From a virus: a stretch of DNA of 39,860 bases. Shown piece after piece: positions 1 to 39,860 of this stretch. The notes beneath the pieces are model-generated. The model worked only from the letters and a program-made list of their open reading frames with translations, had not been told where the DNA came from and did no database searches. Made by a program: the position numbers and the translations under genes. Position 1 is the stretch's first letter. Every line of letters starts with the position of its first letter. The stretch lies in IMG/VR virus record IMGVR_UViG_3300001688_000010, one strand, 5' to 3'.

Positions 1-88
1 AGCCCCCGCAAGCATCACCGACGGCGACCTGGTGCTCGTCACCAGCGACCTGAGCGGCAGCTTCGAGGACACTGGCCTGGAGAACGAC
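1..88. repeat. Terminal redundancy: nt 1-88 are identical to nt 39773-39860 (closure of a circular or permuted genome, unit length 39772 bp)
   Basis: Direct comparison of the two window ends gives 88/88 identity. The repeat lies inside one continuous ORF. Confidence 0.95.
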
Positions 89-1327
89 CAGACCTACTTC
101 TGGCGCTTCTTCCCGTTCAGCGACCACGGCGTCTACAATCTCAACGAGGAGAACATCATCAGCGCGACCCCTCGCGCCTACATCCTCTACGGCTTCGAGA
201 TCAACAAGGCCAACAGTGACCCCGAGAGCTGCGTCACCTACACCGACATGGCCGTGGGCTTCACCCCCGCCCGCGTAAATTTGTCCACCGGCGCCTTCGA
301 CCCCGGCAGCTGGACCGAGGACGTGTTCTTCCGCCAGAACAACCACGTCTGGATGGTAAAGAGCGATGGCACTCCTGACTACCAGCTGAACGACAACGAC
401 TACACGAAGAAGCTGGACGGCTCTGCCTCTGACGTCAGCAACAGCGCCTACGACGGCAACGCCATGGTCCGCTTCGACACCGTCTGGATCAAGGCCTCCG
501 AGAGCGGCAACGTCATGAAGGTGCAGATCTGCAACATCCAGCTGGACGAGGACTTCCACGCCTACGCTCACACCCGTGAGGACGGCAGCATCATGGACTA
601 CATCTGGATGGCAGCCTTCGAGGGCTCCACCATCAGCTCCAAGATCCGCTCCATCAAGGGCGTCGCTCCTACCACCAGCCAGACCGGCGCCAACGAGATC
701 ACCTACGCGGCCAACAACGGCAGCCTCTGGGGCACTCAGACCTGGAGCCAGATCAACATGATCAATATGCTGCTGATCCTGATGGGCAAGAGCCTGAACA
801 CCCAGGCCGTGTTTGGCTACGGCCACTATGACGGCGGATCTCAGGCCAGCCATCTGCTGAAGACCGGCACGATCTCCGACAAGGGCGCCTTCTACGGCAC
901 CAGCGGCAACGTGGCCATGAAAGTGTTCCACATCGAGAACTACTACGGCGACGCCTGGAACCGCATCAGGGGCTGCGTGACCGACGGCAACAAGCAGATC
1001 CTTGTAAAAATGACCCCGCCCTACAATACCGCAGGCACTGGCTACACTGCGACCGGCATCACGCCCGGCGGTACTTCCGGCGGATATATCAGCGCGGCCA
1101 AGATGACCGCGAACGGCCTGATCCCTCAGACCGCGAGCGGCTCCGAGACCACATACTTCGCGGACGGCCTCTGGTTCGCTGCCTCGTGCTACGCGCTCGT
1201 GGGTGGCGACTGCTACGATGGTATGGTAGTCGGAGCATTTGCTTTGTATTTGGGCGATGCCGTGTCCCGTGCGACCTGGTACTTCGGCGCCGCGCTTTCT
1301 TGTGAACAGCCTTTGTCCGCGGCGTAG
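2..1327 (+). CDS. DGR target: distal tail-fibre / receptor-binding protein, C-terminal 441 codons. The 5' part of the same ORF is at 39552..39860; the full protein is about 515 aa.
   Basis: The open frame runs from position 2, and the listed ORF 32..1327 is an internal GTG. The frame is continuous with 39552..39860 through the 88-nt overlap. It is the last gene of the tail module. The C-terminus (GGDCYDGMVVGAFALYLGDAVSRATWYFGAALSC) contains the VR. Confidence 0.9.
   Translation, partial: APASITDGDLVLVTSDLSGSFEDTGLENDQTYFWRFFPFSDHGVYNLNEENIISATPRAYILYGFEINKANSDPESCVTYTDMAVGFTPARVNLSTGAFDPGSWTEDVFFRQNNHVWMVKSDGTPDYQLNDNDYTKKLDGSASDVSNSAYDGNAMVRFDTVWIKASESGNVMKVQICNIQLDEDFHAYAHTREDGSIMDYIWMAAFEGSTISSKIRSIKGVAPTTSQTGANEITYAANNGSLWGTQTWSQINMINMLLILMGKSLNTQAVFGYGHYDGGSQASHLLKTGTISDKGAFYGTSGNVAMKVFHIENYYGDAWNRIRGCVTDGNKQILVKMTPPYNTAGTGYTATGITPGGTSGGYISAAKMTANGLIPQTASGSETTYFADGLWFAASCYALVGGDCYDGMVVGAFALYLGDAVSRATWYFGAALSCEQPLSAA
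1194..1303 (+). repeat. DGR variable repeat (VR)
   Basis: 110 bp collinear with 1424..1533. There are 17 mismatches and all are at TR adenines. It lies within the last roughly 45 codons of the tail-fibre ORF. Confidence 0.93.
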
Positions 1328-1334
1328 CCGCGGA
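1316..1334 (+). promoter_or_regulatory. Perfect 8-bp hairpin (tccgcggc-gta-gccgcgga) 12 nt downstream of VR, spanning the stop codon. Candidate DGR target-recognition hairpin.
   Basis: The inverted repeat was read directly from the sequence. Its position relative to VR mirrors the hairpin/cruciform downstream of the IMH in Bordetella phage BPP-1. Confidence 0.55.
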
Positions 1335-1423
1335 CTCGGGGGGTCCGGGGGCCCTCCCCCGGTAACGGCGTGAACTGATCATTACCAGGGGCCCGGGCGG
1401 GCGCTTTAGGCGTCCTGCTGTTT

Positions 1424-1533
1424 CACTCGTGGGTGGCAACTGCAACAATGGTATGAAAGTCGGAGCATTTGCTTTGAATTTGAACAATGCCGTGTCCAAT
1501 ACGAACTGGAACATCGGCGCCGCGCTATCTTGT
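1424..1533 (+). repeat. DGR template repeat (TR), non-coding RNA template
   Basis: Cognate of the VR. It contains 28 adenines, of which 17 differ in VR. In the VR frame it reads GGNCNNGMKVGAFALNLNNAVSNTNWNIGAALSC, with 9 AAY codons. It sits in the intergenic space upstream of the RT. Confidence 0.93.
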
Positions 1534-1684
1534 CTACATCCCAATGAACCAGCCCGCCCGGGTCCTACACCCCAGGATCTTGAAATAGATCTACCAGCAG
1601 TGGAAATAAAGCCAAGACAAGGCACCGGCCAGTAAGCAGCAGGCCCGCAGCCGGTGAGGCGATAAGAAAGAAGACAACCTTGTT

Positions 1685-3034
1685 ATGAAAAGTTTCCGTA
1701 TTGACGACACGGCCGCAGCTTCCTCCGGAAGCATCGAGAGGGCCATGCTTAACGCATCAAAGAGAAAGAGGTCCAGGAAGGACGTCCAGCGCAGGCTGGC
1801 CAAGATGGAGGAGACCATCGCCACGCTCCAGGTCGTGATCGAGGAGCGCAACTACAACCCCAGACACCACGAGGCCATCGTCATCAACGAAAACGGACCC
1901 CACAAAGAGAGGCAGATCATCAAGCCGGACTACTTCCCGGAGCAGATCATGCACCACGTCGCTGTCCAGGCTCTCCATCCCTGCATCATGCACGGCATGG
2001 GCGCCTTCGTGCTCGGCTCCATCCCAGGACGCGGGGCGCACTACGGGAAGCGCTACGTCGAGAAGTGGCTGCGGCACGATGAAAAGAACACCAGGATCAT
2101 CGGCAAGCTGGACATCCGGCACTTCTTCCAAAGTGTCGACCACGAGCTGCTGAAGGCCTGGATCCATAAGAAAATACGGCCGGGGAAGATCCGCGACCTC
2201 TGCGATCTGATCATCGAGGGCGTGGAGGAAGGGCTCCCGCTGGGCTTCTACACGAGCCAGTGGTTCAGCAACTTCCTATTGCAGCCGCTCGACCATTTCA
2301 TCATGGAGGAGCTGCACGTCTCCCACATGGCGCGGTACATGGACGACATCGTGATCTTCGGATCCAACAAGAAGACCATCCATGCCGCCATGGAGGCCAT
2401 CGACTTCTATTTGTGGAACAACTTCCGCCTGGAGATGAAGAAGAACTGGCAAGTGTTCCGGATGGAATACGTCACGACCGAGTACGCCATCGAGTGCGAA
2501 AAGCTGGGCGATCTGTACGCCCTTCATGACGCGCTACCGGTGAAGCATCAGCTGAAAATGTACAAGGGCCGCCGGAAGATCTTCCTCAAAGCCAACGCCA
2601 GGAACGAGGCCGTCATGGACGAGTACCTGGAGAAGTACGGCGCCAAAGCGGAAACGGTCAGAATGACCCACGGGAGGGCTCTGGATTTTATGGGCTTCGA
2701 GTTCCATCGAGATCGGACCGTCCTCCGTAAATCAATTATGATCAGTGCCACACGCAAAGCAGCCCGGATCGGAGCAGCTCACCGGATCAACTGGGTGGAG
2801 GCTGCCGGGATGCTCTCATATATGGGCTGGATTGACCACACCAACACCTACGCGATGTATCTGGAGTGGGTCAAGCCGTATGTGAATATCAAGAGGCTAA
2901 AGAAAATAATCAGCAACCATCAAAGGAGGCTAAACAATGGAATTGATCTACAAAACCGTCAGGGGCTCCCAGCAGACGCGCCCGGAGGAGCTCGATCTCA
3001 CGTCGAGCCCGGACAAGGTGTATCTGCGTCGTAA
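1685..3034 (+). CDS. DGR reverse transcriptase (449 aa as given)
   Basis: RT motifs are present: KERQIIKP, GSIPGRG, KLDIRHFF, LPLGFYTSQWFSNFLL (DGR SQ signature), ARYMDDIVIFG, ALDFMGFEF. The RBS is weak. The last roughly 98 nt overlap the next gene. Confidence 0.92.
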   Translation: MKSFRIDDTAAASSGSIERAMLNASKRKRSRKDVQRRLAKMEETIATLQVVIEERNYNPRHHEAIVINENGPHKERQIIKPDYFPEQIMHHVAVQALHPCIMHGMGAFVLGSIPGRGAHYGKRYVEKWLRHDEKNTRIIGKLDIRHFFQSVDHELLKAWIHKKIRPGKIRDLCDLIIEGVEEGLPLGFYTSQWFSNFLLQPLDHFIMEELHVSHMARYMDDIVIFGSNKKTIHAAMEAIDFYLWNNFRLEMKKNWQVFRMEYVTTEYAIECEKLGDLYALHDALPVKHQLKMYKGRRKIFLKANARNEAVMDEYLEKYGAKAETVRMTHGRALDFMGFEFHRDRTVLRKSIMISATRKAARIGAAHRINWVEAAGMLSYMGWIDHTNTYAMYLEWVKPYVNIKRLKKIISNHQRRLNNGIDLQNRQGLPADAPGGARSHVEPGQGVSAS

Positions 3035-3266
3035 TATCACCACCGTCACCGAGGCCAACGCTACCACAGGGGAGTCCATCCAGCTCTGGCAGTACGACGA
3101 GGCCATCCTCACCCGGGAGGAGTACGCTCAGTACAAGGCAGAGACGGAAAACGCCGGTCAGAAGCAGATCATGGAGAAACTGCAAACGACCGCAACCGAC
3201 GACAGCCAGCTGATCATCATGGAGGCCCTCGCGGATCTCTACGATCTGATCGCTTCGCTGGCGTAG
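2937..3266 (+). CDS. Hypothetical acidic protein in an XkdW-like position downstream of the tail fibre
   Basis: ATG preceded by an AGGAGG RBS. Its synteny (tail fibre, small proteins, holin, lysin) resembles PBSX xkdV-W-X. No domain was recognised with certainty. Confidence 0.6.
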   Translation: MELIYKTVRGSQQTRPEELDLTSSPDKVYLRRNITTVTEANATTGESIQLWQYDEAILTREEYAQYKAETENAGQKQIMEKLQTTATDDSQLIIMEALADLYDLIASLA

Positions 3267-3279
3267 AAAGGAGGACGTC

Positions 3280-3417
3280 ATGGTAGAGCTCTACACCAGG
3301 CTGATCATCAACAAACGACGCACCATTGACTCCGTGCCGGCAGGCATGAAGTCGGAAGTGGTCGAGCGTCTGAAGGCGCTCGGCTTCGACACTAATGGCG
3401 ATCCCCTCGGGGAATAA
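3280..3417 (+). CDS. Small phage protein (45 aa), paralogue of 3463..3618
   Basis: AGGAGG RBS. MVELYTRLIINKRRTIDSVPAGMKSEVVERLKALGFDTNGDP aligns with MVDLYVALIIAGRRTIDQVPVKFREAVIADLNALGLDENGEP. It is below the ORF-track length cut-off. Confidence 0.6.
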   Translation: MVELYTRLIINKRRTIDSVPAGMKSEVVERLKALGFDTNGDPLGE

Positions 3418-3462
3418 GCCATGATCATCAACTTTATTTTACGAATTTTATGGAGGTACAAC

Positions 3463-3618
3463 ATGGTAGATTTGTATGTCGCTTTAATCATCGCAGGACG
3501 CAGAACCATTGACCAGGTGCCCGTCAAGTTCAGGGAGGCCGTGATCGCAGACCTCAACGCCCTCGGCCTGGACGAGAACGGCGAGCCCATGGAGGACTAT
3601 GGCGTCGCTTCTCACTAA
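3463..3618 (+). CDS. Small phage protein (51 aa), paralogue of 3280..3417
   Basis: Internal ATG of the listed ORF 3421..3618, preceded by GGAGG. It shares the N-terminal motif with the upstream gene. Confidence 0.65.
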   Translation: MVDLYVALIIAGRRTIDQVPVKFREAVIADLNALGLDENGEPMEDYGVASH

Positions 3619-3637
3619 GTAAAGGAGGAGCACGTCG

Positions 3638-4003
3638 ATGTCGCCAGAAGTTTCCAGCATTATCATCGCGCTGATCGCAGGTCTGACCGGGTCCGGAGGA
3701 TGCTCCATCATCCTCTACCTGCTCCAGCGCCGTGATAAGAAAAAAGACGGCCAGACCGAGGAGGACAAGCAGCGCGACGAGGCCACCAAGCGCCAGAGCG
3801 CGATGCTGCTCGGCCTCGGCCATGATCGGATCGTTTACCTGGGAAGCTGCTACATCGAGCGGGGCTGCATCACTCAGGACGAGTACGAAAACCTGCACGA
3901 CTATCTCTACGAGCCCTATCTGGCGCTCGGCGGGAATGGTACGGCCAAAAAAGTCATGGCGGGGGTGGAACGCCTTCCGCTGCACAAAAACAAGGAGGAA
4001 TAA
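3638..4003 (+). CDS. Membrane-anchored protein of the lysis cassette (N-terminal TM helix, charged linker)
   Basis: AGGAGG RBS. Hydrophobic N-terminus IIIALIAGLTGSGGCSIILYLL followed by a KKKD/E-rich segment. It lies immediately upstream of the holin. Confidence 0.6.
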   Translation: MSPEVSSIIIALIAGLTGSGGCSIILYLLQRRDKKKDGQTEEDKQRDEATKRQSAMLLGLGHDRIVYLGSCYIERGCITQDEYENLHDYLYEPYLALGGNGTAKKVMAGVERLPLHKNKEE

Positions 4004-4009
4004 AAACCC

Positions 4010-4237
4010 ATGAAGAAGATCGACTGGATCCGCAAGCTCACGAGCCGCAAGTTCTGGCTCAGTGTGGCTTCTTTCGTCTCCATGCTTATCGTCGCCCTGG
4101 GCGGCGCTGAAGCGACTGCCACTCAGGTCACTGGCCTGATCATGGCCGGCGCGACTGTCATCGGCTACGTCATCGGCGAAGGCCTGGCAGACGCCGGCAA
4201 CGCTTCCGGCGAGGGCTCCGGCGCGGCCGGAGAGTAA
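4010..4237 (+). CDS. Holin (phiLC3-like pattern)
   Basis: 75 aa. The N-terminus KKIDWIRKLTSRKFWLSVASFV plus two hydrophobic helices resembles phiLC3-family holins. It is directly upstream of the endolysin. Confidence 0.7.
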   Translation: MKKIDWIRKLTSRKFWLSVASFVSMLIVALGGAEATATQVTGLIMAGATVIGYVIGEGLADAGNASGEGSGAAGE

Positions 4238-4240
4238 GCC

Positions 4241-5677
4241 GTGAAGGTGACAGGGTCCTCCACTGAGAAGACCATCTGGAACTACTTCATCGTCAAAGGA
4301 ATGAGCCCCGCCGGTGTGGCGGGGCTCATGGGCAACTTATACGCCGAGAGCGGGCTCAATCCGCAGAACCTCCAGAACACCTACGAGAAGCGCCTGGGCT
4401 TCACGGACGCCAGCTACACGGCGGCCGTGGACTCCGGCGCCTACGCCAACTTCGTCCGAGACGGGGCTGGCTACGGCCTCGCACAGTGGACATACTGGAG
4501 CCGCAAGGAGGCCATGCTCAACTACGCGAAGAAGACCGGCGCGTCCATCGGCGACCTGATCATGCAGCTCGACTTCATGTACCAGGAGCTGAAGGGCTAC
4601 GTCGCCGTGTTCCAGGTGCTCCGAACAGCCCGGACCGTAAAAGAAGCGTCGGACATCGTGCTAACCAAGTACGAGCGCCCGGCCGACATGAGCGGCGCCG
4701 TCAAGGCTAAGCGGGCCAGCTATGGCCAGGCCTTCTACGACGCCTACACCACAGAGAAGGAGGTCAGCACCATGAGCAACAGCCCTCTGGTGACTTATAC
4801 CAACATCACCAAGAACAAGACCAGCCCTCGCAATCACGCCATCGACACCATCACGATCCACTGCATCGTGGGCCAGTGGACGGCCAAGCAGGGCTGCGAC
4901 TATTTTGCCACCACTGACAGGGAGTGCAGCGCCAATTACATCGTCGGCAAAGACGGCAGCATCGGCCTGTCCGTCGACGAGAGGGATCGCTCCTGGTGCA
5001 CTTCCAGCCGTGAGAACGACAACCGCGCCATCACCATCGAAGTCGCCAGCGACACCGAGCACCCCTACGCTGTCACCGATGCAGCGTACAGCGCCCTGAT
5101 CAAGCTGGTGGCCGACATCTGCCAGCGCAACGGCATCAAGCAGCTGGTCTGGTCTACCAACAAGGCCGACCGCGTGAACCACGTCGACGGCTGCAACATG
5201 ACCGTCCACCGCGACTACGCCAACAAGGCCTGCCCGGGCCAGTATCTCTACGAGCGCCACGGTGCCATCGCTGCGGCCGTCAATGCGATCCTGGGCTCCG
5301 GCACTACCCAGGCACCGGAAGCGGCTCCGGAGGCCGTCCAGGGCTTCCCTGAGACGCCCTTCACCGTCCGCGTCATCGTTCCGGATCTGAACTACCGCAA
5401 GGGCCCCGGCATGAGCTATACAGTCAAGGGCCAGACCGGCAAGGGCGTCTTCACCATCACCGAGGTGCAGGACGGCTGGGGCAAGCTGAAAAGCGGCGCC
5501 GGCTGGATCTATCTGGAGAACCCGAACTACTGCACCATCCTGGGCGTGGCATCAAAGCCTCCCGACCCGGATCCCGCAGACGTGCTGGCCGAGGAGATCG
5601 CCGGCAAGGTGAAGGGCTCCGGCCTGGATCCCGAGGACATCCTGAACAGGGTCGAGAAGATCCTGGGCGTGGCATGA
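4241..5677 (+). CDS. Multidomain endolysin: N-terminal phage lysozyme-like domain, central N-acetylmuramoyl-L-alanine amidase (Amidase_2/PGRP), C-terminal SH3-like wall-binding domain
   Basis: Motifs GLMGNLYAESGLNP..GYGLAQWT; IDTITIHC..ANYIVGKDG..ITIEVA..HRDYANKACPG; C-terminal VFTITEVQDGWGKLKSGAGWIY. GTG start. Confidence 0.9.
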   Translation: MKVTGSSTEKTIWNYFIVKGMSPAGVAGLMGNLYAESGLNPQNLQNTYEKRLGFTDASYTAAVDSGAYANFVRDGAGYGLAQWTYWSRKEAMLNYAKKTGASIGDLIMQLDFMYQELKGYVAVFQVLRTARTVKEASDIVLTKYERPADMSGAVKAKRASYGQAFYDAYTTEKEVSTMSNSPLVTYTNITKNKTSPRNHAIDTITIHCIVGQWTAKQGCDYFATTDRECSANYIVGKDGSIGLSVDERDRSWCTSSRENDNRAITIEVASDTEHPYAVTDAAYSALIKLVADICQRNGIKQLVWSTNKADRVNHVDGCNMTVHRDYANKACPGQYLYERHGAIAAAVNAILGSGTTQAPEAAPEAVQGFPETPFTVRVIVPDLNYRKGPGMSYTVKGQTGKGVFTITEVQDGWGKLKSGAGWIYLENPNYCTILGVASKPPDPDPADVLAEEIAGKVKGSGLDPEDILNRVEKILGVA

Positions 5678-10324: not shown

Positions 10325-10531
10325 ATGAAGAAAAAGAGACCCCAGCCCCAGCAGGACAAGCGCTACAAGTGCTGCGAGACCTGCGGCAATATGCAGCCCA
10401 TCGGAGAGGGCGACCACATCTGCGACGCCTGCTGCGGCCACGATGGCAGCCCCTGCGCTCTGATCCTGGAGGACTACACCCCGGCCGACGACTACTTCAT
10501 CTGCGAGGGAAGCAGGTGGACACCACAATGA
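10325..10531 (+). CDS. Small Cys-rich (zinc-finger-like) protein
   Basis: CCETCG..HICDACCGHDGSPC. AGGAGG RBS. Confidence 0.6.
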   Translation: MKKKRPQPQQDKRYKCCETCGNMQPIGEGDHICDACCGHDGSPCALILEDYTPADDYFICEGSRWTPQ

Positions 10532-11136
10532 GCGCGACCAACCGAGGCGGCGAGCGCAAGGCCTACGACTTTTACGCCACCCCGCCTGAGACCGTTCGCA
10601 GCTTCCTGGCCAACTTCGACGGCATCAGCTCCGACGACCGTATTCTGGAGCCATCCGCCGGCAACGGCCAGATCATTCAAGTGCTAAGGGAGAGCGGCTA
10701 CACCAACCAGATTGACGCCGTGGAGCTGCGACCAGAGGAGCAGGCCGTCCTGGAGGCTCTGGCCGATAACGTCACCATCGGCAGCTTCTTCGATTACAAG
10801 CCCGGCTATGGCTACGACGTCATCATAGGCAACCCGCCCTACAGCATGGCCCTGGAGTTCATCAACAAGAGCCTGGAGCTGCTGCATCCCGGGGGCCGGC
10901 TGATCTTCCTCCTCCGGACGAACTTCCTGGAGAGCGAGAAGCGCTTCAAATGGTGGCAAGAGCACCCGCTCAGCGGGCTCTACACCCTGCACAAGCGCCC
11001 CAGCTTCACCGGCCGAGGCACTGACGCCACCAGCTACTCCTGGTTTGTATGGGAGCGGGGGGGGGACCGGCTGCATAGGCCGCCAGACCATCAAAACCAT
11101 CTAAGGAGGACAAGCACATGGAAAACATCGACCTGA
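10528..11136 (+). CDS. DNA N6-adenine methyltransferase (motif I then NPPY). The 3' end is probably out of frame after the G9 tract at 11057..11065.
   Basis: ILEPSAGNGQ (SAM motif) and IIGNPPYS. The ATG at 10528 overlaps the upstream stop. With one fewer G the ORF ends at about 11104, just before the next RBS. Confidence 0.8.
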   Translation: MSATNRGGERKAYDFYATPPETVRSFLANFDGISSDDRILEPSAGNGQIIQVLRESGYTNQIDAVELRPEEQAVLEALADNVTIGSFFDYKPGYGYDVIIGNPPYSMALEFINKSLELLHPGGRLIFLLRTNFLESEKRFKWWQEHPLSGLYTLHKRPSFTGRGTDATSYSWFVWERGGDRLHRPPDHQNHLRRTSTWKTST

Positions 11137-13566: not shown

Positions 13567-14112
13567 ATGTCTAACACCAAAATCATCACCGGAAAAGTTC
13601 GCTTCAGCTATGTGAACATCTTCAAGAGCCGCGCCTTCCAGGCCGGTCAGGACGCCAAGTACAGCATCTGCCTGCTGATCCCCAAGGAGGACAAGGCCAC
13701 CATCAAGAAGATCCGCGCAGCCATCGACGCGGCCGTCCAGGACGGCATCGCCTCCAAGTGGGGCGGCAAGAAGCCCGGCAACCTGAAGCTGCCCCTGCGC
13801 GACGGCGACGCCGAGCGTGCTGACGAGGCTCCTGAGTACGAGGGTATGTACTTCCTCAACTGCAACAGCAACCAGAAGCCCGGCATCGTGGACAAGGATC
13901 TGAACGAGATCCTGGACCCCGACGAGGTCTACTCCGGCTGCTGGGGCCGCGCCTCCATCAACTTCTTCCCCTTCAACACCAACGGCAACAAGGGCGTCGG
14001 CGTCGGCCTGAACAACATCCAGAAGCTGAAGGACGACGAGCCCCTGGGCGCTGCTCGTGCCTCTGCCGAGTCTGACTTCGGTGACGGCTTCGAGGACGAC
14101 GAGGACTTCTAA
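13567..14112 (+). CDS. DUF2815-family ssDNA-binding protein with an acidic C-terminal tail
   Basis: ITGKVRFSYVNIF..LPLRDGD..YFLNCNS pattern and a DDEDF tail. Conserved position between the DUF2800 nuclease and the polymerase. Confidence 0.75.
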   Translation: MSNTKIITGKVRFSYVNIFKSRAFQAGQDAKYSICLLIPKEDKATIKKIRAAIDAAVQDGIASKWGGKKPGNLKLPLRDGDAERADEAPEYEGMYFLNCNSNQKPGIVDKDLNEILDPDEVYSGCWGRASINFFPFNTNGNKGVGVGLNNIQKLKDDEPLGAARASAESDFGDGFEDDEDF

Positions 14113-21308: not shown

Positions 21309-22107
21309 CAGATACCCGCCAGAGGTGCATCAGTTCATCGCGGCCAACGTCGAGGGCCGCACCTGCAAGGAGCTCGCAGAGCTGACCAACCGGGAGATGG
21401 GCACCGCCTTCACCGAGACCATGATGCACAGCTACAAACACAATCACGGACTGAAGTCCGGGACGAAATGCGGCAAGCCGAAGGGCTGGAGCCCGGTCTA
21501 TCCTGACGGGATGGAGGACTTCATCCGCAGCGTGGCAGAGGGCCGCACGGTCTACCAGATCGCCGAACTGGTGAACGAGCGCTACGGTGCCGGCACCATT
21601 GACGCGGTCAAGGTCCGAGCCTTTAAGAAAAACCACGGCATCGTCTCCAACCTGAACACCCGCTTCAAAAAGGGATCCACGCCCTGGACAAAGGGCAAGA
21701 AGCAGACCGACTACATGAGCCCGGACGCCATCGAGCGCACCAAGGCCACCCGCTTCCAGCCTGGGCAGACTCCGGCCAACCTGCTGCCGGTCGGCGCCAT
21801 CGTGAAGAACGCCGACGGCTACCTTCTCCGGAAGAAGCAGATGGACGGCAGCCAGTGGGAGCGCTGGGAGTTCCTGCACCGTGCAGTCTGGGAGGAGCAC
21901 AACGGGCCCATCCCGGAGGGCATGATGGTCAGCTTCAAAAACGGCGACAAGGAGGATCTGGACATCGACAACCTGATGCTGATCAGCAACGCCGAAAACC
22001 TGGAGCTGCATCGGTCCGGCCTCCGCTTCGATGAACGAGAACTCACTGAGACCGGGCTGACCCTGGTCAAGTTAAAGATAAAGACCCGAGAAAGGAGAAG
22101 AAAATGA
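21301..22107 (+). CDS. HNH endonuclease with two N-terminal HTH-like repeats
   Basis: C-terminal HRAVWEEHNGPIPEGMMVSFKNGDKEDLDIDNLMLISNAEN (HNH_3-like). The N-terminal module is internally duplicated. Confidence 0.8.
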   Translation: MANRYPPEVHQFIAANVEGRTCKELAELTNREMGTAFTETMMHSYKHNHGLKSGTKCGKPKGWSPVYPDGMEDFIRSVAEGRTVYQIAELVNERYGAGTIDAVKVRAFKKNHGIVSNLNTRFKKGSTPWTKGKKQTDYMSPDAIERTKATRFQPGQTPANLLPVGAIVKNADGYLLRKKQMDGSQWERWEFLHRAVWEEHNGPIPEGMMVSFKNGDKEDLDIDNLMLISNAENLELHRSGLRFDERELTETGLTLVKLKIKTRERRRK

Positions 22108-22433
22108 TCGGATATTTAAGCGGCCCCATCACGGGCCACAAGAACTACCGGCGCCAGTTCGCTGAGGCTGCCGCCGCACTGAAGGAGCTGGGCTACGTCG
22201 TCATTAACCCCGCCGAGCTCGACCACGCCCTCCCCGTGGAGGAGATGGGCTACGAGGGCATCATGCAGGTCGATCTGGCTCTCCTGTCTGCTGCTGACTA
22301 CCTGGTGCAGCTTCCCGGATGGGAGAACTCCAGAGGCGCCAACCGCGAGCTGGGCTTCGCCCTGGGCGCTGACAAGATCGTCGTCACCCTGGAAGATCTT
22401 CTGGCGAAGGAGGTGACGCTGCCATGGAATTAA
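22104..22433 (+). CDS. DUF4406 / nucleoside 2-deoxyribosyltransferase-like protein
   Basis: YLSGPITG..NY..F..VINP..LPGWENSRGANRE pattern. Confidence 0.65.
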   Translation: MIGYLSGPITGHKNYRRQFAEAAAALKELGYVVINPAELDHALPVEEMGYEGIMQVDLALLSAADYLVQLPGWENSRGANRELGFALGADKIVVTLEDLLAKEVTLPWN

Positions 22434-27178: not shown

Positions 27179-28492
27179 ATGGACGAGAGCTATCAGAACC
27201 TACTCGCCGCCGGAGTCGAGGCGAAATACAGAGCGCTGGAGATGTCGATCATGGACGACATCATCCGCAGGATCCAGAAGGCCGGCAGGATCACCGACGC
27301 CGCCGACTGGCAGATCCAGCGCCTGGTCATCCTGGGCAACAGCACCCAGGACATCGAGGACCTGATCCGGAGAGCCGTGGGCGGAAACGAGGAAGAAGTC
27401 CGCAGGCTCTACGCTGAGGTCATCGAGCGGGAATACACCCGCGACCGGTCGCTCTACGAGCAGATCGGCAAGGAGTTCATCCCCTACGAGCTGAACCCTG
27501 AGCTCCAGCAGATCACCGACGCCCTGGTGAAGCAATCCACCGAGGAGCTCTACAACATCACCAAGAGCACCGGCTTCATGCTGGAGAACGGCAGCGGCCG
27601 GAAGATCTTCACGCCGCTGTCTGACGTCTACAACCACTACCTGGACGACGCCATCACCGGCATGGCCAACGGCGCCTACGACTACAACACACTGGTCCGG
27701 CGCCTGGTCAGTCAGATGACGGCCTCCGGGCTCCGGACTGACCACGCCTTCAGCGATGGCGGCAGCGACTACGGCGTGGACTACGCCAGCGGCTGGCACA
27801 ATCGCGTGGACGTGGCTGCCCGGCGTGCGCTGCTCACCGGCTTCGGCCAGCTGACGCAGCACGTCACAGATCTGAACGCCCAGCGTCTGGGGACCAACTA
27901 CTTCGAGGTCACATGGCACGGAGGCGCCAGACCGGAGCACGCAGCATGGCAGGGCAAGGTCTACACCAAGGAGCAGCTGACGACCAAGTGCGGCCTGGGC
28001 ACCGGTCCGGGCCTGCTGGGCTGGAACTGCCGGCACACCTACTACCCCTTCATCCCTGGCATCAGCGAGCGCCTCTACACAGACGAGTGGCTGGAGGAGC
28101 AGAACCGCAGGGAGGCTATCCCGCGCAGCTTCCGGGGTAAGGAGTACAACGCCTACGAGGCCACCCAGAAGCAGAGACAGATGGAGACGGCCATGAGGGC
28201 CAGGCGTGAGCAGGTGCATCTCCTCCGCACTGCCGGAGCTGACAAGGAAGACATCACCATCGCCCAGTGTAAGTACCAGGCCCAGCTGGAGCAGTACCGC
28301 AGCTTCTCCGCTGCGATGGGCCTGGAGGAGCAGATGGAGCGCGTCTATACCGGCCGCACCACTGGCAGGATCTCACCGAGCCCGCAGGTCTACGCCCGCT
28401 GGCAGGCTGAGCAGATCGCCAAGGCTCAGGAACGAGCCGAGAAGCGCCGCAGAGCCGACCAGGACGCCGCTCAGAGAGGAGGAAGCACATGA
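27179..28492 (+). CDS. Head morphogenesis / minor capsid protein (MuF / SPP1 gp7-like)
   Basis: Position after the portal. WHGGARPEHAAWQGKVY..GWNCRHTYYPF motif. Confidence 0.8.
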   Translation: MDESYQNLLAAGVEAKYRALEMSIMDDIIRRIQKAGRITDAADWQIQRLVILGNSTQDIEDLIRRAVGGNEEEVRRLYAEVIEREYTRDRSLYEQIGKEFIPYELNPELQQITDALVKQSTEELYNITKSTGFMLENGSGRKIFTPLSDVYNHYLDDAITGMANGAYDYNTLVRRLVSQMTASGLRTDHAFSDGGSDYGVDYASGWHNRVDVAARRALLTGFGQLTQHVTDLNAQRLGTNYFEVTWHGGARPEHAAWQGKVYTKEQLTTKCGLGTGPGLLGWNCRHTYYPFIPGISERLYTDEWLEEQNRREAIPRSFRGKEYNAYEATQKQRQMETAMRARREQVHLLRTAGADKEDITIAQCKYQAQLEQYRSFSAAMGLEEQMERVYTGRTTGRISPSPQVYARWQAEQIAKAQERAEKRRRADQDAAQRGGST

Positions 28493-28782
28493 TCAACATC
28501 CACGTCGACGAGAACAGTCTGAGCGTCACAGGGCACGCTGAGCGGCCTGCTGGCGCACCTCCTGGCAATAACATCATCTGCGCGGCCGTGTCTTCGGTCA
28601 CGCTGACACTGATCGAGGGGCTGCGGGAGATCGCCGGCCTCCAGATCGAGGCCGTCACCGAGCCCGGCAACGTGCAGATCAAGTGGGACCGGCTGAACGA
28701 CATCGGCAAGGCCCTGATCGACACCTGGCTGCTGGGGATCTACGGGATCCAGGGCAGCTACGGAAATATCACAATAGTTTAA
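28489..28782 (+). CDS. prp: Prp-like cysteine protease (ribosomal-processing cysteine protease family)
   Basis: SVTGHAERP (catalytic His) and NIICAAVSS (catalytic Cys) match the Prp/YsxB signature. About 97 aa. It lies next to the scaffold and capsid genes. Confidence 0.8.
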   Translation: MINIHVDENSLSVTGHAERPAGAPPGNNIICAAVSSVTLTLIEGLREIAGLQIEAVTEPGNVQIKWDRLNDIGKALIDTWLLGIYGIQGSYGNITIV

Positions 28783-39551: not shown

Positions 39552-39860
39552 ATGGCAGACTTCACAGGTGCCCAGTACACAGTCGACGAAGTGCTGGCAG
39601 GCATCAAGAAAAACCAGATCACCGGCCTGCCTCCCTCTAACCTGACCAGCAAGAGCGTCAGGATCGGAGACGGCAAGGCCACACTCGTCTGGAGCGTTCC
39701 GGCCACGACTACGGTCGACGGCCAGGTGCTTCAGACTACCGGCGGCGTTATGATCCGCCGCAAACTGGGCGAAGCCCCCGCAAGCATCACCGACGGCGAC
39801 CTGGTGCTCGTCACCAGCGACCTGAGCGGCAGCTTCGAGGACACTGGCCTGGAGAACGAC
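39552..39860 (+). CDS. 5' part of the DGR target tail-fibre gene (FN3-like region), continuing at position 2 through the circular junction
   Basis: ATG with an AGGAGG RBS 4 nt after the upstream stop. No stop codon before the window end. In frame with 2..1327 once the 88-nt overlap is collapsed. Confidence 0.85.
   Translation, partial: MADFTGAQYTVDEVLAGIKKNQITGLPPSNLTSKSVRIGDGKATLVWSVPATTTVDGQVLQTTGGVMIRRKLGEAPASITDGDLVLVTSDLSGSFEDTGLEND

Follow-up and report, generated by a model that had tools for sequence, protein, structure and literature searches.

The circular phage genome represented by the IMG/VR record IMGVR_UViG_3300001688_000010 (the whole 39,860-nt stretch analyzed here is referred to as the window) encodes a complete diversity-generating retroelement (DGR). 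The element consists of a target gene with a variable repeat (VR), a short non-coding spacer, a template repeat (TR), a structured spacer (Sp) RNA, and a reverse transcriptase (RT), in that order. The best explanation of the data, which is likely correct as a whole, is that this DGR is active and free of accessory genes, that no Avd protein is involved in it or anywhere in the respective RT clade of Firmicutes-type gut phages, and that the extra domain found in its RT was added later. What is new here, if modestly so, is that the Avd-independent DGR RTs include a large sub-clade with a compact basic ferredoxin-like insertion in the palm.

Diversification of the target gene in nature

The VR and TR form a 108-nt repeat pair, and all 16 mismatches between them fall on TR adenines. 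The VR codes for the last ∼40 residues of the target, a tail protein of PHROG 5302 with no Pfam match, and its 3′ end holds a GC-rich block, GGCGCCGCGC (positions 1286 to 1295), that looks like an initiation of mutagenic homing (IMH) site. An independently assembled Clostridia metagenome-assembled genome (MAG), L011, contains a sequence that is 98.7% identical to the window overall and encodes an RT with 100% protein identity. The two sequences differ at 16 VR positions, every one of them a TR-A site, and at none across the ∼1.1 kb between positions 1282 and 2382. Similarly, five near-identical prophages with insertion-bearing RTs have one common TR and five distinct VRs, with 19 of the 20 variable VR sites located at TR adenines; in the L020-L022 pair, there are 14 differences in the VR and none in the 1,500 nt downstream. 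Because the VR differences among near-identical prophages are limited to TR-A sites, these Avd-less elements work in nature, and the DGR is currently active, diversifying its target in an A-specific manner.

The near-identical DGR prophages L017, L018, L019, L020, and L022 (with the RT at approximately 4001 to 5419 in each) show 0 to 15 differences in 1.5 kb. The genomes that contain them are assigned to different families, namely, Lachnospiraceae, Oscillospiraceae, and “Clostridiaceae,” a spread that means either that these prophages have very diverse hosts or move between hosts, or else that the MAGs were mis-binned.

Absence of Avd across the RT clade

The initial annotation of this DNA, made from the sequence without database searches, reported no recognizable Avd, and this observation stands for the entire phage genome: the Pfam families PF22296 (bAvd) and PF05635 had no matches among the 39 window open reading frames (ORFs) that were scanned. 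The BPP-1 Avd, used as a positive control, was recognized with an E value of 7e-36. No HRDC, MSL, or CH1 accessory genes were detected in Pfam and PHROG scans of the neighboring ORFs, the sole check made for these genes.

For comparison, 79 related loci were taken from the genomes of bacteria, chiefly Lachnospiraceae, Oscillospiraceae, and other Clostridia. The VR and TR could be located in ∼69 of them, at VR-TR offsets of 190 to 460 nt. No Avd-family matches were found among the 284 ORFs flanking these 79 loci, most of which encode RTs without the insertion. Given that all 79 loci lack Avd, with or without the insertion, the absence of Avd is a clade-wide property that does not depend on the insertion.

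In the window, the VR-TR spacer (positions 1304 to 1423) is 120 nt long, has a GC content of 69% (compared with 61% for the window), and contains stop codons in all three forward frames. Thus, it is non-coding and GC-rich, as noted in the initial annotation, and, at 120 nt, too short for an avd gene. However, this position is not empty, as had been claimed, since it holds a hairpin and the 5′ arm of an RNA duplex (see below).

The same layout has been seen before. In the survey of 372 DGRs by Wu et al. (2018, NAR), avd was absent in 26% of the elements, and Architecture A (TR-RT) accounted for 29%; the order of target, TR, and RT with no accessory gene is counted in 75 of the 372 DGRs. The locus architecture, which had been taken for atypical and undescribed, was therefore already described. 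The authors of that survey also noted an avd-lacking lineage, searched the genomes for a distant avd without success, and proposed that retrohoming in such systems is Avd independent.

An Avd-like factor could have been missed if it were encoded by the host and acted in trans, or if it were a phage protein that has diverged too far to be recognized with the Pfam models. Conservation among Avd sequences is very low and BPP-1 components are able to act in trans (Wu et al. 2018), and several small ORFs of this phage have no family assignment. However, the genome-wide profile search by Wu et al. (2018) revealed no distant avd in the hosts of Avd-less DGRs, and the presence of the diversifying near-identical prophages L017 to L022 in different families makes a specific host factor unlikely. 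Further, the gap from the TR to the 3′ arm of the duplex is just ∼18 nt, in the place where BPP-1 has its Avd-binding stem-loop. A missed factor of either kind is very unlikely, and an element that functions with no Avd at all remains the preferred explanation.

The reverse transcriptase core and its termini

The RT is 449 residues long, as originally reported, and contains a YMDD motif at residue 218 and the sequence LGFYTSQ at residue 186. The (I/L/V)GxxxSQ motif is diagnostic of DGR RTs. In a phmmer search of the PDB, the best match was the Bordetella RT, bRT (8ub7_A; E value, 8.5e-21), with residues 47 to 257 aligned to bRT residues 48 to 251 and residues 330 to 363 aligned to bRT residues 255 to 288. 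The AlphaFold2 (AF2) model, built with 86 homologues, has a mean predicted local distance difference test (pLDDT) score of 88.7, and its top Foldseek match, at a target-normalised TM-score (TMt) of 0.91, is the same structure, which shows bRT in the active state.

Two of the three RT segments singled out as unusual in the initial annotation proved to be unremarkable. The supposed basic N-terminal extension has the same length as the NTE subdomain of bRT, with residue 47 aligned to bRT residue 48; its KRKR motif corresponds to GKRR in the bRT NTE, and Lys28 is invariant across the family. This segment is an ordinary NTE, not an extension. As for the C-terminal tail, the RT indeed overlaps the next ORF by 98 nt, but the tail is not a meaningful extra segment: its last 30 residues have pLDDT scores below 50, and there is no family consensus past approximately residue 417. 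In the relatives, the overlap between the RT and the next gene varies from 53 to 155 nt, while the N terminus of the next gene is conserved; the AGGAGG ribosome-binding site of that gene sits within the RT codons for QRRLN. Because the RT stop wanders while the frame of the next gene is conserved, the tail is an incidental read-through.

The inserted palm domain and its distribution

The third segment, an insertion, is real. Alignment with bRT and with sister RTs confirmed it and showed that the originally reported boundaries (nt 2465 to 2677) were right within two codons. It is located in the palm, at the tip of the β-hairpin FRMEY...HGRALDF that joins RT motifs 6 and 7. There, ∼70 extra residues, including the 67-residue domain, take the place of 3 residues in bRT and of a ∼9-residue loop, exemplified by VDRKGKRR, in the insertion-less sister RTs; across the sub-lineage, the length of the domain varies from 67 to 78 residues. 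Its pLDDT score is ∼95 in the full model and 83 when the domain is folded alone. The predicted fold is ferredoxin-like, β-α-β-β-α-β, with DSSP assigning four strands and two helices to the model. Foldseek comparisons with the PDB retrieved only generic ferredoxin-like folds (best E value, 4e-3), such as the UreE C-terminal domain, PII-like proteins, de novo ferredoxins, and EF-G domains, and comparisons with viral predicted structures gave only weak and uninformative matches. Both the AF2 fold and the Foldseek results rule out an all-helical four-helix bundle, so that the domain is unlike Avd and is not the basic helical bundle that had been envisaged. It is, nevertheless, basic: the median isoelectric point (pI) of the family is 9.4, and the conserved K/R-rich β2-β3 hairpin reads KxKxHKGKRK. 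In a search for stand-alone versions of the domain or its fusions outside RTs, the profile of the insertion core found none at an E value of 0.01 in a set of 5.8 billion proteins.

Database searches with the RT sequence identified 813 word-sharing relatives, and nearly all of the best ∼110 were 430 to 475 residues long with >90% query cover. When 1.84 billion cluster representatives (at 50% identity) were searched exhaustively, 5,673 RT relatives were recovered. Most of the best cluster representatives consist of 355 to 390 residues and align in two stretches, residues 1 to 264 and 326 to 447, skipping residues 265 to 325. A neighbor-joining tree was built for 242 RTs, of which 114 bear the insertion; 109 of these fell into one clade, and the inferred state at the root was the absence of the insertion. 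The insertion has therefore been derived in one large sub-lineage. The closest RTs among isolated phages, those of the Butyrivibrio phages Arawn and Idris, the Faecalibacterium phage FP_Epona, and the Lactobacillus phage LBR48, are 33 to 38% identical to the window RT. The cultured phages Arawn (RT of 381 residues) and FP_Epona (384 residues) have the same layout with neither the insertion nor avd. Common as the insertion is in metagenomes, no mention of it was found for the characterized clades or elsewhere in the literature searched, and it appears to be undescribed.

According to the initial annotation, the extra RT segments (N terminus, insertion, and tail) do the job of Avd, which would make this protein an undescribed self-sufficient variant of DGR RT. 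The absence of Avd from the whole phage genome, the activity of the element in nature, and the properties of the insertion, a genuine, conserved, and basic segment with a confidently predicted fold, are all in line with that proposal. However, the insertion-less sister RTs are equally devoid of Avd and have the same layout, with short VR-TR spacing where it could be located and the same Sp RNA where it was compared. A ferredoxin-like fold is neither a four-helix bundle nor a pentameric barrel, and bRT docks Avd on the NTE, not on the palm hairpin (Handa et al., bioRxiv 10.1101/2023.10.23.563531). The N terminus matches the bRT NTE in both length and motif, while the tail, disordered and unconserved, is subject to constraint from the other reading frame; finally, Avd-independent DGRs had already been proposed (Wu et al. 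2018). The sister lineages contradict a substitution for Avd by these segments, which is very improbable. The insertion is a lineage-specific embellishment of an enzyme that was already Avd independent, not the cause of that independence.

A profile of the insertion matched the C-terminal domain of Aquifex MutL (5b42_A) over nearly its full length, with an E value of 0.0014 in hmmsearch and a probability of 74% in hhalign. On this basis, the insertion could be viewed as a degenerate MutL-like module that links cDNA integration to DNA handling of the mismatch-repair type, much as MutS-like accessory proteins might do in some DGRs. The motifs of this MutL domain are DQHA(X)2E(X)4E and CPHGRP, with the VDQHLLEERINYE segment being its endonuclease motif. 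In the insertion family, however, the positions opposite VDQHLLEERINYE are not conserved, and the score comes in part from the HGRP sequence, in which GRP is RT motif 7 and is present in the insertion-less RTs as well. The aligned secondary structure elements do not correspond, and MutL is absent from the top 50 Foldseek matches of the domain model. For other DGRs, Wu et al. (2018) did report MutS-like accessory genes, as well as RT extensions that resemble MutS_I; even so, a MutL-type function is highly improbable, and the match, weak and with no Foldseek support, was judged to be probably spurious.

The most likely role of the domain, as an embellishment of an Avd-independent RT, would be RNA binding or an additional contact to the DGR RNA or cDNA. 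It may tentatively be suggested, with considerable doubt, that the domain represents a previously unrecognized nucleic-acid-binding module that perhaps reads a lineage-specific RNA feature or handles cDNA or target DNA. If the domain does contact RNA or DNA, Avd-less DGRs would have in it one more, separable means of controlling processivity or targeting.

RNA structure around the template repeat

The non-coding parts of the locus contain several predicted RNA or DNA structures. The first GC-rich hairpin starts 12 nt past the VR end, and its loop contains the stop codon of the target gene. The motif GCNGC-GTA(A)-GCNGC recurs past the VR in the relatives, with covariation in the stem, and is seen in a weaker form past the TR. 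This hairpin is a candidate counterpart of the stem-loop located downstream of the IMH in BPP-1, which it resembles. The second hairpin, a perfect 7-bp stem with the loop CCCT, lies between the first one and the 5′ arm of the duplex; having no T-run, it is not a classic terminator.

Comparative analysis indicates that the TR is bracketed by a long-range RNA duplex of 14 bp. In 65 loci, the median pairing energy was −28.8 kcal/mol for cognate arms versus −19.2 kcal/mol for non-cognate ones (P ≈ 1e-19), and most positions of the duplex show several Watson-Crick pair types among 23 distinct loci, i.e., covariation. No hairpin was predicted in the 18 nt between the end of the TR (1533) and the 3′ arm (1552). 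Since these 18 nt are all that is left at the position of the BPP-1 Avd-binding stem-loop, the layout of the RNA itself agrees with a lack of Avd.

The region between the duplex and the RT gene appears to form a structured Sp RNA of the Rfam RT-4 type (RF03025). The match in the window covers the full model (positions 1 to 118) with an E value of 1.6e-9 and a score of 56.1 bits, below the Rfam gathering score of 73.5. Several relatives exceed the gathering score: L014, which bears the insertion (74.4 bits), L029 (76.1 bits), and L091 (124.4 bits); the FP_Epona RNA likewise passes, at 124 bits. In the RNAalifold consensus of 19 sequences, 21 pairs were predicted, 11 of them with compensatory changes on both sides. 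The thermodynamic fold of positions 1328 to 1690 alone could not be separated from those of shuffled sequences (z = −1.08), so the support for the RNA structure comes from covariation rather than from folding energy.

The Sp RNA is common to the insertion-bearing and insertion-less loci that were compared, and only the apical part of its last stem differs: it reads GCxxxxGC-CCCA in most of the 11 insertion-bearing loci and forms a GAAA-capped stem in 8 sister loci. In the window, this apical region falls at approximately 1631 to 1650; most insertion-bearing loci have a small GNRA-like hairpin there, followed by CCCA. Being a single phylogenetic contrast, this difference may serve as a lead but not as evidence.

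Another sequence pattern was seen at the 3′ edge of the TR. In the relatives, this edge carries a near-invariant TCTTATC, complementary to an invariant GATAAGA that immediately precedes the RT start. In the window, the 3′ end of the TR (positions 1528 to 1534, CTTGTCT) is perfectly complementary to AGACAAG in the Sp linker (positions 1614 to 1620), so that the A-to-G change in the edge motif is matched in the linker complement; a third site (GATAAGAAAGA) is found at approximately 1660 to 1670. These complementary segments could form a template-primer duplex or could merely reflect the ribosome-binding region of the RT gene.

Proposed mechanism

By analogy with BPP-1, a transcript of approximately 1389 to 1684, together with the RT mRNA, would fold so that the 14-bp duplex brackets the TR. 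The RT-4-type RNA would dock the RT, which would then copy the TR into adenine-mutagenized cDNA. This cDNA would replace the VR, guided by the GC-rich end of the VR and the first hairpin. In one sub-lineage of such RTs, the hairpin that connects motifs 6 and 7 gained the basic ferredoxin-like domain at its tip. The data show the anatomy of the element, the lack of Avd, the fold, the phylogenetic spread, the RNA covariation, and the diversification at adenines in nature, while the order of the above steps is what we infer, and the same applies to the role of the inserted domain.

Several observations weigh against this interpretation. The scan for Avd took plausible window ORFs of a suitable size and was not an exhaustive six-frame profile search, and a host-encoded factor, or an Avd beyond the reach of the Pfam models because of its divergence, may participate. 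A scan for sigma-70 promoters between positions 1150 and 3400 found no sites, including the vicinity of the spacer. The RT-4 score of the window RNA is below the gathering score, and in a covariation test of whether the 3′ end of the TR pairs with the Sp RNA as a template-primer duplex, cognate pairs were no better than non-cognate ones (P = 0.70). In addition, any role of the insertion is purely what we infer.

Relation to known systems

Among the known systems closest to the locus are the Architecture A1 DGRs (Wu et al. 2018), which include “Lineage 3,” a lineage that lacks avd. The shared features are a target with a C-terminal VR, followed by a TR and an RT, with no avd, HRDC, MSL, or CH1; a single adjacent target; association with a phage; and almost purely A-to-N substitutions. 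The difference lies in the RT palm insertion, which that survey does not mention; the word “insertion” is absent from its main text.

The well-studied BPP-1 element (mtd-avd-TR-brt; 8ub7) has the same RT fold, including the NTE, and the same A specificity of mutagenesis. [quoted passage not shown] The “cPRT stop” duplex of BPP-1 (Handa et al., cited above) parallels the TR-bracketing duplex described here, except that its upstream arm lies within the 3′ end of avd, whereas in the window this arm is in the non-coding spacer. In contrast to BPP-1, which has an avd gene and an Avd-binding stem-loop directly downstream of the TR, the window has neither of these, with just ∼18 nt in the latter position. 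Its Sp RNA is of the RT-4 type, whereas that of BPP-1 is RT-10, and the 67-residue domain of its RT corresponds to 3 residues in bRT.

The phages Arawn/Idris, FP_Epona, and LBR48 share with the window the gene order of tail fiber/target, TR, RT, small ORF, XkdX, holin, and endolysin, with no avd; their RTs, of 381 to 384 residues, have no inserted domain, unlike the one in the window. The RNA motif RF03025, to which RF03021 (RT-18) is related, is matched in the window directly upstream of an RT gene, with hairpins that compensatory changes support. The RT-n motifs were identified near RT genes by Weinberg et al. (2017), who speculated on a link to DGRs and showed that RT-10 is the BPP-1 spacer. 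Earlier, RF03025 was known only from its association with RT genes, whereas here it is placed between TR and RT in Avd-less DGRs.

The retrohoming route of the approximately one-quarter of DGRs that lack Avd remains the question. To our knowledge, all mechanistic and structural work on DGRs has so far been done on the Avd-dependent BPP-1 system. The locus analyzed here and its relatives provide a clean natural test set: a phage clade that diversifies its tail fiber without Avd, with a covarying RNA scaffold (the duplex and RT-4) and with enzymes that either have or lack the insertion. For directed-evolution tools, a minimal DGR with a single protein would have an appeal of its own.

Genome setting and neighboring genes

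The first and last 88 nt of the window are identical, so it represents a phage genome that is circular, complete, and 39,772 bp in size. The L011 sequence crosses the circle junction at 98.6 to 99% identity. As judged from the ORF, Pfam, and PHROG scans, the genome encodes a tail module, a lysis cassette (a holin-like gene and an endolysin with the Phage_lysozyme2 and Amidase_2 domains), a helix-turn-helix (HTH) repressor, and replication and head genes, as well as a recombinase-like ORF of 502 residues on the minus strand; it is a temperate siphophage of gut Clostridia. The DGR is found at the end of the tail module (Table 1). In the circular genome, the target gene spans positions 39552 to 39772 joined to 1 to 1327, an ORF of 1,563 nt with no internal stop, in a position that matches the target genes of 512 to 516 residues in L001, L004, and L005.

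Table 1. Features of the DGR and its surroundings in the window
Feature	Position	Strand	Evidence or remarks
DGR target (tail fiber) gene, 5′ part	39552..39860	+	Continues at position 1 across the circle closure
DGR target gene, 3′ part, VR at the C terminus	1..1327	+	ORF listing; PHROG 5302 tail protein, E value 9.5e-83
Variable repeat (VR)	1196..1303	+	116-nt repeat family D1; mismatches confined to TR adenines
GC-rich hairpin, perfect 9 bp (GTCCGCGGC-GTA-GCCGCGGAC)	1315..1335	+	Inverted repeat I1; candidate target-site stem-loop
Second GC-rich hairpin (CCGGGGG-CCCT-CCCCCGG)	1345..1362	+	Inverted repeat I2; also in the minimum free energy fold
TR-bracketing duplex, 5′ arm	1389..1402	+	Inverted repeat, 93% complementary to the 3′ arm
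Template repeat (TR)	1426..1533	+	Repeat pair with the VR; identical in the window and L011
TR-bracketing duplex, 3′ arm	1552..1565	+	18 nt past the TR end; pairing energy and covariation
Structured spacer (Sp) RNA, putative Rfam RT-4 type	1566..1667	+	RF03025 match; RNAalifold covariation
DGR reverse transcriptase, 449 aa	1685..3034	+	Pfam RVT_1; phmmer, AF2, Foldseek
Inserted domain of the RT, V263-H329	2471..2671	+	bRT alignment, sister RTs, AF2, Foldseek
RT C-terminal tail, aa 420-449, overprinting the start of the next gene	2942..3034	+	Disordered, unconserved
Acidic tail-module gene, 109 aa, outside the DGR	2937..3266	+	pI 4.4; PHROG 20201 (function unknown)
Two tandem XkdX-like genes	3280-3417, 3463-3618	+	Both PHROG 1382; lysis cassette next

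Other genes of this phage code for an Eco57I-like methyltransferase, an Enc34-type single-stranded DNA-binding protein, a DUF4406/nucleoside deoxyribosyltransferase-like protein, and a Prp-like cysteine protease adjoining the head genes; the four ORFs in this set are located at window positions 10369 to 11136, 13567 to 14112, 22104 to 22433, and 28489 to 28782.

The small ORF that follows the RT was described in the initial annotation as acidic and as resembling an XkdW-type gene rather than Avd. It is indeed acidic and is not an Avd; the XkdW assignment found no support in Pfam, where this ORF has no match to any family, XkdW (PF09636) included, at E values up to 0.1. It does occupy the position that XkdW has in PBSX-like tail modules, between the tail fiber and the XkdX-like genes. 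Its homologues directly follow the tail fiber genes in the prophages L095 and L096, which have no RT. The presence of homologues in DGR-less prophages rules this ORF out as a DGR accessory gene. The two XkdX-like mini-genes located next to it are paralogous and encode 45 and 51 residues. The syntenic gene in L004 belongs to Phage_XkdX (PF09693), and the annotation of FP_Epona has an XkdX protein in this place.

In the DGR-less L095 (positions 1800 to 4986) and L096 (positions 1899 to 4986), two tandem genes of tail fiber size, ∼490 to 530 residues, replace the target, TR, and RT. The L006 to L010 metagenome contigs, which carry a 96%-identical version of the 109-residue gene, begin 62 to 489 nt upstream of it, a region that in this phage lies inside the 3′ part of the RT gene. 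These contig starts possibly reflect population heterogeneity, for example, the coexistence of variants with and without the DGR.

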